NCBI GenBank assembly: GCA_027021705.1
Contig: JALUTT010000015.1
Location: forward strand, 1 to 17,945
DNA length: 17,945 nucleotides
Direction of reading: 5' to 3'
DNA from: Anaerolineae bacterium
GTDB lineage: Bacteria; Chloroflexota; Anaerolineae; S140-20
Shown here: positions 7,921 through 8,865 of the stretch, in pieces
Numbering within the stretch: position 1 is the first letter of the stretch
Layout: the number at the start of each line of letters is the position of its first letter
The notes under the pieces: generated by a model
Database searches by the model: none
What the model saw: the letters and a program-made list of their open reading frames with translations, nothing else
What the model was told of the DNA's origin: nothing
Position numbers and translations under genes: made by a program

Positions 7921-8865
7921 ATGCGCAAGAAGATCTCCATCATTGGCGCCGGCAACGTCGGTGCGACTACGGCCCACTGGGCAGCAACGCGCGAGCTGGG
8001 GGACATCGTCCTGGTGGACATCGTCGAAGGGCTCCCCCAGGGCAAGGCGCTGGACCTGACCGAAGCGATGCCGGTGGTCGGGTACGACCTGAAGATCGTG
8101 GGCACCAACGGTTACGAGGAGACGGCCAACTCCGACGTCGTGGTCATCACCGCCGGCGTGCCGCGCCGCAAGGACCCCAAGACCGGGAAGTACCCCAGCC
8201 GCGACGAGCTGGTCAAGATCAACCAGAAGATCGTCACCGAGGTCGTCGAGAACGTGGTCCGCTACTCCCCCGACACCATCCTGGTCGTCGTCTCCAACCC
8301 CCTGGATGCGATGTGCCACGTGGCCTACCACGTCTCCGGCTTCCCCCGCGAGCGGGTAGTGGGGATGGCGGGGATGCTGGACACGGCCCGCTACAAGGCT
8401 TTCATCGCCATGGAGCTGGGCGTCTCGGTCAAGGACGTCCACGGGATGGTGCTGGGCGGCCACGGGGACTCGATGGTCCCACTGCCCCGCCACACCTCGG
8501 TGGCCGGCATCCCTGTGACCGAGCTGATCCCTCCCGACCGGCTGGAGGCGATCATCGAGCGCACCCGTAAGGGAGGGGGGGAGATCGTCGGCCTGCTGGG
8601 CTACAGCGCCTACTACGCGCCGGGCATCGCCATCACCGCGATGGTCGAGGCCATCGTCAAGGACCAGAAGCGGGTGATGCCGGCGGCGGCGCTGCTGAAG
8701 GGGGAGTACGGTTTCCACGACCTCTTCATCGGCGTCCCCGTCGTCCTGGGAGCCGGCGGTGTAGAACGGATCATCGAGATGAAGCTGGACGACGAGGAGA
8801 TGGCTCTGCTCCGCAACTCGGCGGAGCACGTCCGCAGCGTCGTCGCCGTCCTCGGCTACGACTAG
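7921..8865 (+). CDS. mdh: LDH-like NAD-dependent malate (2-hydroxyacid) dehydrogenase
   Basis: [59 protein letters not shown]; substrate loop carries an insertion. Confidence 0.88.

Follow-up and report, generated by a model that had tools for sequence, protein, structure and literature searches.

The window analysed here is a stretch of 17,945 nucleotides from the genome of an Anaerolineae bacterium (GCA_027021705.1, contig JALUTT010000015.1). It carries a malate dehydrogenase (MDH) gene whose product has a lengthened substrate-specificity loop, followed directly by a gene of the LarA racemase family. The question raised by this locus is whether the longer loop has changed the substrate of the bacterial enzyme, as happened in the lactate dehydrogenase (LDH) of malaria parasites. 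We consider it quite probable that the gene encodes a housekeeping NAD-dependent L-malate dehydrogenase of type 3, the active-site lid of which would be lengthened by a small beta-hairpin. Since its subfamily keeps every malate-recognising residue, and since it is the only such enzyme found in its host, it most likely still uses malate and has not repeated the parasite's switch to lactate.

Family assignment and reading of the loop

The mdh gene (7921..8865, forward strand, as are all features of the gene given below) encodes a protein of 314 residues, and its assignment to the LDH-like (type 3) NAD-dependent MDHs is based on TIGR01763, the equivalog HMM for this family (466.1 bits, above the curated cut-off of 351.85), and on its best PDB matches. 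The cut-off is also passed by two distant members of the clade described below (L034 and L052). Tetrameric LDH-like relatives of the window MDH are the type-3 MDHs of Chloroflexus aurantiacus (1guy, 4cl3), Thermaerobacter (7aob) and Geobacillus (7by8), with the C. aurantiacus enzyme as the top PDB matches (E-value 8e-123). A predicted model of the window MDH superposes on 4cl3 over 308 of 314 residues (Z 47.0, rmsd 1.2), and the structurally aligned residues are about 61% identical. GC3 of the gene is 0.93, inside the range of seven neighbour genes (0.84-0.96), and recent transfer, as judged by composition, was therefore rejected. A promoter scan of positions 7600-10400 yielded no sigma-70 site.

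In the alignment column that probably represents position 68, where D/Q would be expected in a type-3 MDH in place of the His of LDHs, the window MDH has a Glu; this Glu is likewise present in C. aurantiacus MDH and in 31 of 52 short-loop MDHs, and His is found there in 17 of 17 LDHs. Shared with the C. aurantiacus enzyme are the catalytic Arg109, Asp168, Arg171 and His195 (R94, D154, R157 and H181 in the window MDH), which are kept in all 89 clade rows, and the type-3 signature, described as R102, M199, A/S246 and P250 (PMC9486893), which is represented by R82, M185, A230 and P234. According to the same source, T246 is a permissive step towards the use of pyruvate. A canonical L-LDH (Q102, D/E199, T246, I250) was rejected, as the window enzyme has R, M, A and P at these positions and scores 250.5 with the LDH model TIGR01771, below its cut-off of 303.55. 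By every testable feature, the window enzyme appears to belong to the type-3 MDHs.

As pointed out in the first-pass annotation, the mobile (specificity) loop has six additional residues, with 13 residues between the AG and SRD motifs (8149-8211) compared to seven in the C. aurantiacus and Geobacillus MDHs. The loop extends from V80 to P92 (8158..8196). Within it, R82 (8164..8166) aligns with the Arg of RKPGMSR in C. aurantiacus MDH and corresponds to Arg102, the oxaloacetate-selecting residue, and the malate-specifying Arg is indeed retained. The eight residues K84-D-P-x-T-G-K-Y91 (8170..8193) replace the usual Pro-Gly, and the Tyr reported near the end of the insert is Y91 (8191-8193). It is followed by P92-S93-R94 (8194..8202), of which P92 is at the Met107/Trp107f position and R94 is the catalytic Arg109. 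The opposing loop (L225-A230, 8593..8610, with A230 as position 246) lacks one residue in comparison with C. aurantiacus MDH, as read from an alignment gap, and has Gly-Tyr where that enzyme has Lys-Thr.

Conservation and distribution of lengthened loops

A loop of 13 residues is present in all of the 240 best-scoring homologues, collected in one search with the window protein as seed and another with the distant member L034, and the insert as a product of chance or assembly error was rejected. The sequences behind these and the following residue counts were picked by similarity and are not independent, and they therefore show conservation within the clade rather than the frequency of the insert. 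Their loop consensus is [VIK]-P-R-[RK]-K-[DN]-P-x-T-G-x-[FY]-[PT]. Lys84 is found in 238 of the 240, and D/N, Pro, Thr, Gly and the aromatic residue in all of them; the tip residue of the predicted hairpin is free to vary (V/E/K/A). As the aromatic residue, Phe (150 proteins) is more frequent than Tyr (90) and Trp never occurs, and the Trp107f position is occupied by Pro (235) or Thr (5). Outside the insert, R102, M199 and P250 are invariant, R171 is kept in 239, and position 246 is Gly in 198 and Ala in 42, never Thr (in the 89 clade rows: G 55, A 33, S 1, T 0). In the opposing loop, G227 is present in 89 of 89 and Y/V228 in 86 of 89 clade rows, compared to Lys in 48 and Thr in 44 of 52 short-loop MDHs. 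Other clade-specific surface changes are H133, K159 and a C-terminal Tyr. The clade therefore differs from other type-3 MDHs in its 13-residue mobile loop, in Pro/Thr instead of Met107, in an opposing loop that is one residue shorter with Gly-Tyr/Val, and in Gly246 in most members. As background, the 150 best cluster representatives at 50% identity gave 135 stretches that span the loop, and 127 of these have a loop of seven residues; 20 further stretches without loop coverage are left out of the 135.

A scan of GTDB with a DNA pattern for the insert loop identified at least 119 loci, all of them MDH. The pattern demanded R102, and these loci are therefore uninformative on conservation of that residue; Trp was permitted at the aromatic position, where the 119 loci listed have Phe (101) or Tyr (18) and never Trp. 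Eighty titled loci among the matches listed comprise 60 from Chloroflexota, 16 from Myxococcota (mostly Nannocystaceae), two from Gammaproteobacteria and two with other labels, the last two of which nest among Chloroflexota in the tree. Insert-type mdh genes in records labelled Thiomicrospira, Methylophaga, Pleurocapsa and Acidobacterium (L034, L052, L100 and L102) are nested within Chloroflexota sequences, and are either transfers or mis-binned contigs. In the class of the window genome (Anaerolineae), the insert type is found in 19 of 401 genomes, its own included, in four family groups. In a sample of Myxococcota, one of 151 genomes (the seed) reached an insert-type score, and the 29 next-best loci in the tree are of the short-loop type.

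After removal of the loop columns, a tree of 158 rows (173 near-full matches minus 15 duplicates) united 89 insert rows in a single group with a support of 99, and insert rows were grouped again in IQ-TREE subsets. A position of this group as sister to the short-loop Anaerolineae MDHs gave an AU p of 0.33. In its phylogenetic distribution, the insert is fixed across one clade, comprising Anaerolineae, Nannocystales and a few others, and is not peculiar to the window genome. No description of this clade was found in PMC10583557 or in other literature, in a search that was thin on subscription papers and covered main texts rather than supplements, and it is apparently a structural variant of type-3 MDH for which there is no earlier description that we could find.

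A second MDH lineage with a lengthened loop could be identified (P0338, P0334, P0391-P0509; loci L257-L336), with source names including Krumholzibacteria, Latescibacterota and Methylomirabilota. Its loop of 12 residues reads VPRKARPDGTFP, and there is an extra insert after the second beta-strand. The one-shorter form x-P-D-G-[TS]-[FY]-P, which keeps the same turn centre as the 13-residue hairpin, occurs together with R102 and M199 in 119 of 120 homologues and in 80 of 80 loci of this lineage; in P0334 the aromatic residue is replaced by Met. Such a one-shorter loop, x-P-D-G-T-F-P, is also seen in one member of the insert clade, L154, and in both long-lid lineages the Lys-Thr of the opposing loop has become Gly-aromatic. 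A tree in which the 13- and 12-residue clades share an origin was rejected (AU p 0.008; LG+G4, both loops dropped, 45 rows), and the loop segment alone may have been transferred between them. The gene context of the second lineage (80 loci) includes sucC in one locus, and neither larA nor pck in any.

A different long loop was observed in the cluster representative P0350, a type-3-like MDH with R102, a loop that is four residues longer and a Trp two residues before R109. As judged from its sequence, this Trp would be at the true Trp107f position, making P0350 a closer mimic of the apicomplexan enzymes than the window MDH. Its origin could be eukaryotic.

Predicted lid geometry and substrate specificity

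The short MDH loop presumably turns at Pro105-Gly106, and in the insert clade this tip appears to be replaced by K-D-P-x-T-G-K-[YF]. The new turn (residues 85-90) would be centred exactly between R82 (R102) and S93 (S108), giving the pairs K84:Y91, R83:P92 and R82:S93, so that the extra residues would bulge outward as a hairpin and leave R102 and R109 in their normal register. The D/N-P-x-T-G-K-F/Y core of the insert, of which D/N-P-x-T-G is invariant in the 240 top homologues, matches the loop NPATGKF of the designed hairpin GB1m3, as given in PMC6135771. An AlphaFold model of the window MDH has a mean pLDDT of 93.5, and 78 in the loop, where DSSP assigned no strand or bridge. As Pro92 has no NH, DSSP need not mark a bridge here, and for this reason a homologue with Thr92 (L091) was picked for folding. 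Its model, also with a loop pLDDT of 78, has isolated DSSP bridge marks at exactly the equivalents of K84 and Y91, and we infer that these two residues would pair with each other. The L091 model superposes on 4cl3 over 306 of 312 residues (rmsd 1.0), so that all but six residues superpose, as is the case for the window model. Fold searches were non-discriminating, the Z scores of apicomplexan enzymes and short-loop MDHs being at most about 2-3 units apart. Taken together, sequence and models suggest that the insert is a DPxTG beta-hairpin which lengthens the lid symmetrically with R102 in register. The invariant aromatic residue would pair cross-strand with K84, and its probable packing partners are R102 and the opposing loop, itself altered in the clade (Gly-Tyr/Val); the latter contact is suggested by the Gly-aromatic opposing loop in both lineages. 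Such packing would affect the motion of the lid, which is the rate-limiting step, or else Km or stability, and not the substrate.

Apicomplexan LDHs and the engineered AncMDH2-INS (4plt), as described by Boucher et al. (2014, PMC4109310), resemble the insert clade in having a type-3 MDH scaffold and a longer specificity loop with an aromatic residue, and AncMDH2-INS also keeps R102. An apicomplexan insert of similar size had been invoked for comparison. It is indeed located in the same loop and carries a Trp, but the loop of 4plt has 12 residues, a net gain of five against six in the window enzyme, with its Trp directly before S108. The apicomplexan loop retains Lys-Pro-Gly, followed by an insertion of unrelated sequence which, unlike the window hairpin, would displace residue 102. 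In the insert clade, Pro or Thr is found directly before S108 and the aromatic residue comes one position earlier; in the alignment with 4plt, the best PDB match of the window loop region, Pro92 is opposite the Trp and Tyr91 one residue before it. In natural apicomplexan LDHs, which originated through duplication alongside an MDH, residue 102 is Lys, whereas R102 is universal among the 240 insert-clade homologues and no second MDH was found. An apicomplexan-type LDH was rejected on the basis of P/T at the Trp107f position, R102 rather than Lys102, the net gain of six rather than five, and the fact that no MDH paralogue was found in its own or in 18 other insert genomes. A role of the Tyr as Trp107f mimic does not agree with its replacement by Phe in most homologues, with the consistent lack of Trp, or with its being one residue out of register. 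Of the proposed independent bacterial insertion with altered specificity, the independence can be maintained, as the sequence is unrelated to the apicomplexan insert although it lies in the same loop and R102 is kept; the altered specificity is not supported. Insertions between residues 102 and 109 are further described for HicDH and FrsC, bacterial members of the superfamily, of which the former is without Arg or Gln at 102 and the latter has Ser102 (PMC9299796). An identity of this type was rejected for the window enzyme because of its R102.

Retention of R102 would also fit a bifunctional enzyme, by analogy with AncMDH2-INS, which has both R102 and the insert and is described as bifunctional (PMC4109310). 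The window gene could then be a natural counterpart of AncMDH2-INS, a reductase of broadened 2-oxoacid range in which a single, unduplicated gene would fulfil the roles of both MDH and LDH; we regard this as rather unlikely. The long lid would have to flip, with R102 in for oxaloacetate and Y/F91 in for pyruvate or aromatic keto acids, and a flip of either residue into the active site is considered in bioRxiv 2023.06.21.545977. As reported in bioRxiv 386029, loop length is tolerated in the apicomplexan-type enzyme, and W107fY and W107fF retain activity at a 50- and 100-fold lower level, respectively. The invariance of the insert aromatic in the 240 top homologues and the match of the loop region to 4plt are in line with this; however, the same study by Wirth et al. 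states that the aromatic must sit in the proper location, which in the insert clade holds Pro or Thr. Also, Trp is found in none of the 240 top homologues and in none of the 119 loci listed where the pattern permitted it, T246 is absent, and the second clade tolerates Met at the aromatic position in P0334. Loop extensions do accompany new specificities in HicDH and FrsC, but both are described as having lost R102 (PMC9299796), which the insert clade kept. For the apicomplexan enzymes, it is reported that the specificity switch came after gene duplication, and that modern MDHs lost activity on oxaloacetate by a factor of more than 100 when the PfLDH insert was grafted into them (PMC4109310). 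A role in substrate binding is nevertheless conceivable for the invariant aromatic and for the change to Gly246 (198 of 240), and the housekeeping MDH that we favour may also act, as a side reaction, on pyruvate or on larger keto acids, given this invariance, the best loop match with 4plt and the precedent of AncMDH2-INS.

Host genomes and gene neighbourhood

Family and homology searches were performed on the window genome, which is 94.9% complete. The window mdh is the sole PF02866 match found in it, and neither a second MDH or LDH nor an Mqo or Ldh_2 enzyme was found, which settles, at this completeness, the suggested check for a second canonical mdh. Citrate synthases, class I fumarase, SucCD and PckA are present, and a LutB homologue scores above its cut-off. 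A second type-3 MDH was found in none of 18 other insert genomes. Ten of the 18 have a separate LDH-type gene with 29-35% identity; all three tested pass TIGR01771, and nine are in the LDH group of the tree. No LDH-type gene was found in the other eight, nor in the window genome. In five further genomes, the insert MDH is the sole family member in four, and the fifth has an LDH. The lack of an LDH among the genes found in the window genome favours the bifunctional enzyme, whereas the LDH-type gene kept in ten of the 18 genomes and the LutB homologue of the window genome speak against it. In two insert genomes, the LDH-type genes (L024, L180) have an 8-residue loop without the usual Gln motif (GVNSASPEETR), and L180 is above the TIGR01771 cut-off. 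Three genomes from the same family as the window genome (G001, G002 and G003; 64-91% complete) yielded no type-3 MDH; an LDH-type gene is present in two of them, and there are two close copies of larA in G001 as well as in G002.

Gene context was compared for 80 insert loci among the matches listed, with flanks of up to 4 kb. A co-oriented gene for PEP carboxykinase is located upstream of mdh in 26 of them (ATP-type pckA in 15, GTP-type pckG in 11), and sucC is directly downstream in 15, which are 15 of the 16 Myxococcota loci. A TPR gene precedes mdh in ten insert loci and in the short-loop loci L186 and L187, and a DUF1385 gene is found in 20 insert loci and in many short-loop loci as well. 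The alteration of specificity proposed in the first-pass annotation is made improbable by these pck and sucC neighbours, by the retention of all type-3 signature residues, and by the insert MDH being the only MDH found in its own and in all 18 other insert genomes.

The linkage to pck and sucC, the strict conservation of a surface loop in the 240 top homologues and the other clade-specific surface changes (H133, K159, C-terminal Tyr) would all suit an ordinary MDH whose exposed hairpin chiefly serves as the docking site of a partner enzyme (PEP carboxykinase, citrate synthase, succinyl-CoA synthetase) or of an adjacent subunit. This has little probability in our view, since the neighbour varies by lineage (pckA 15, pckG 11, sucC 15 and TPR 10 of the 80 loci listed), pck also adjoins short-loop MDHs (L003, L004, L010, L166 and L170), and the conserved positions are those needed by the hairpin itself, with a freely varying tip.

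In the window, mdh is preceded by a DUF1385 gene (6046..6972, forward strand; PF07136), which is a conserved upstream marker for both loop types, and by a gene for a TPR protein (7002..7667, forward strand; TPR Pfam matches). The next gene downstream (8930..10231, forward strand) was correctly recognised as LarA-family; its product, a LarA-superfamily (NPN-dependent) 2-hydroxyacid isomerase, matches PF09861 and PF21113. That mdh and larA are co-oriented and only 64 bp apart, that larE and larC homologues are present in the genome, and that the LarA homologue passes no cut-off of a characterised subfamily might suggest a dedicated racemase-dehydrogenase pair, in which the insert re-tunes the enzyme to a hydroxyacid other than malate. 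This is highly improbable, as larA is found at none of the 80 other insert loci listed, and the same larA is preceded by a short-loop mdh in six loci with loops read (L008, L011, L184, L186, L187 and L191) and by an Ldh_2-family dehydrogenase gene in six of 29 other larA loci fetched. Close LarA homologues (E-value ≤ 1e-90) occur in 121 of 401 genomes of the class, but a search of the 18 other insert genomes found none. The window genome would also be left without any MDH found. The link between LarA and the insert that had been proposed was therefore dropped, and the gene order DUF1385-(TPR)-dehydrogenase-larA looks older than, or independent of, the insert.

The slot upstream of this LarA subgroup (with a QY loop, S/T-R and a Q-R-A motif) can be occupied by a short-loop MDH, an insert MDH or an unrelated Ldh_2-family enzyme, as observed in the window (6046-10231) and in L184-L187, L191, L198, L200, L204, L208 and L212. 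The best model of the Ldh_2-family enzyme is L-sulfolactate dehydrogenase, below its cut-off. For the LarA neighbour, the top PDB match is Mar2 (6d6z), and the best NCBIfam models are those of malate racemases, with scores below their cut-offs (LarAH6, 304.9 against 500; LarAH5, 296 against 462). K351 of Mar2 is proposed to bind the second carboxylate of malate (PMC7583248); Arg355 aligns with it, and Arg is present in 28 of 30 loci. The LarA neighbour differs from Mar2/LarAH6 in having QY instead of YK (Y172-K173) after the catalytic His, and S/T instead of Q293. With Q-Y, S and R at the substrate residues of Mar2, it has kept the charge of K351 alone.

A perfect, GC-rich stem-loop of 12 bp without a U run is located between mdh and larA (8882-8912, forward strand). 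It is weak in comparison with shuffled sequences (z -2.0, with 8 of 200 shuffles as good), and may protect the mdh transcript or reduce expression of larA. Elsewhere in the window, a minus-strand run (141-5771) encodes tandem metallo-beta-lactamase-fold hydrolases (3367-4146 and 4149-4913) and a protein with a weak DUF4032 match; the minus-strand ORFs 141-1541, 1546-2424 and 5025-5771 had no Pfam or NCBIfam match. A MoaD-MoaE fusion (13141-13920) and a MutY that ends in a MutT-like Nudix domain (16754-17866), both on the forward strand, are ordinary.

For annotation, the result is ordinary, and the name malate dehydrogenase is most likely right. The natural enzymes with lengthened loops described so far in PMC4109310 and PMC9299796, i.e. 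apicomplexan LDH, HicDH and FrsC, have all lost R102 and changed their substrate. The insert clade and the second clade appear to show the opposite outcome, a longer lid with R102 kept. Together they provide a natural control for the question whether the register of an insertion, rather than its length, decides on a switch in specificity, and long-lid MDHs offer a ready scaffold for lid engineering. If it turned out to be bifunctional, the enzyme would represent, in living organisms, the intermediate between MDH and LDH for which ancestral reconstruction is so far the only source; hundreds of bacteria would then possess it as a stable enzyme in single copy, and it would have arisen twice.
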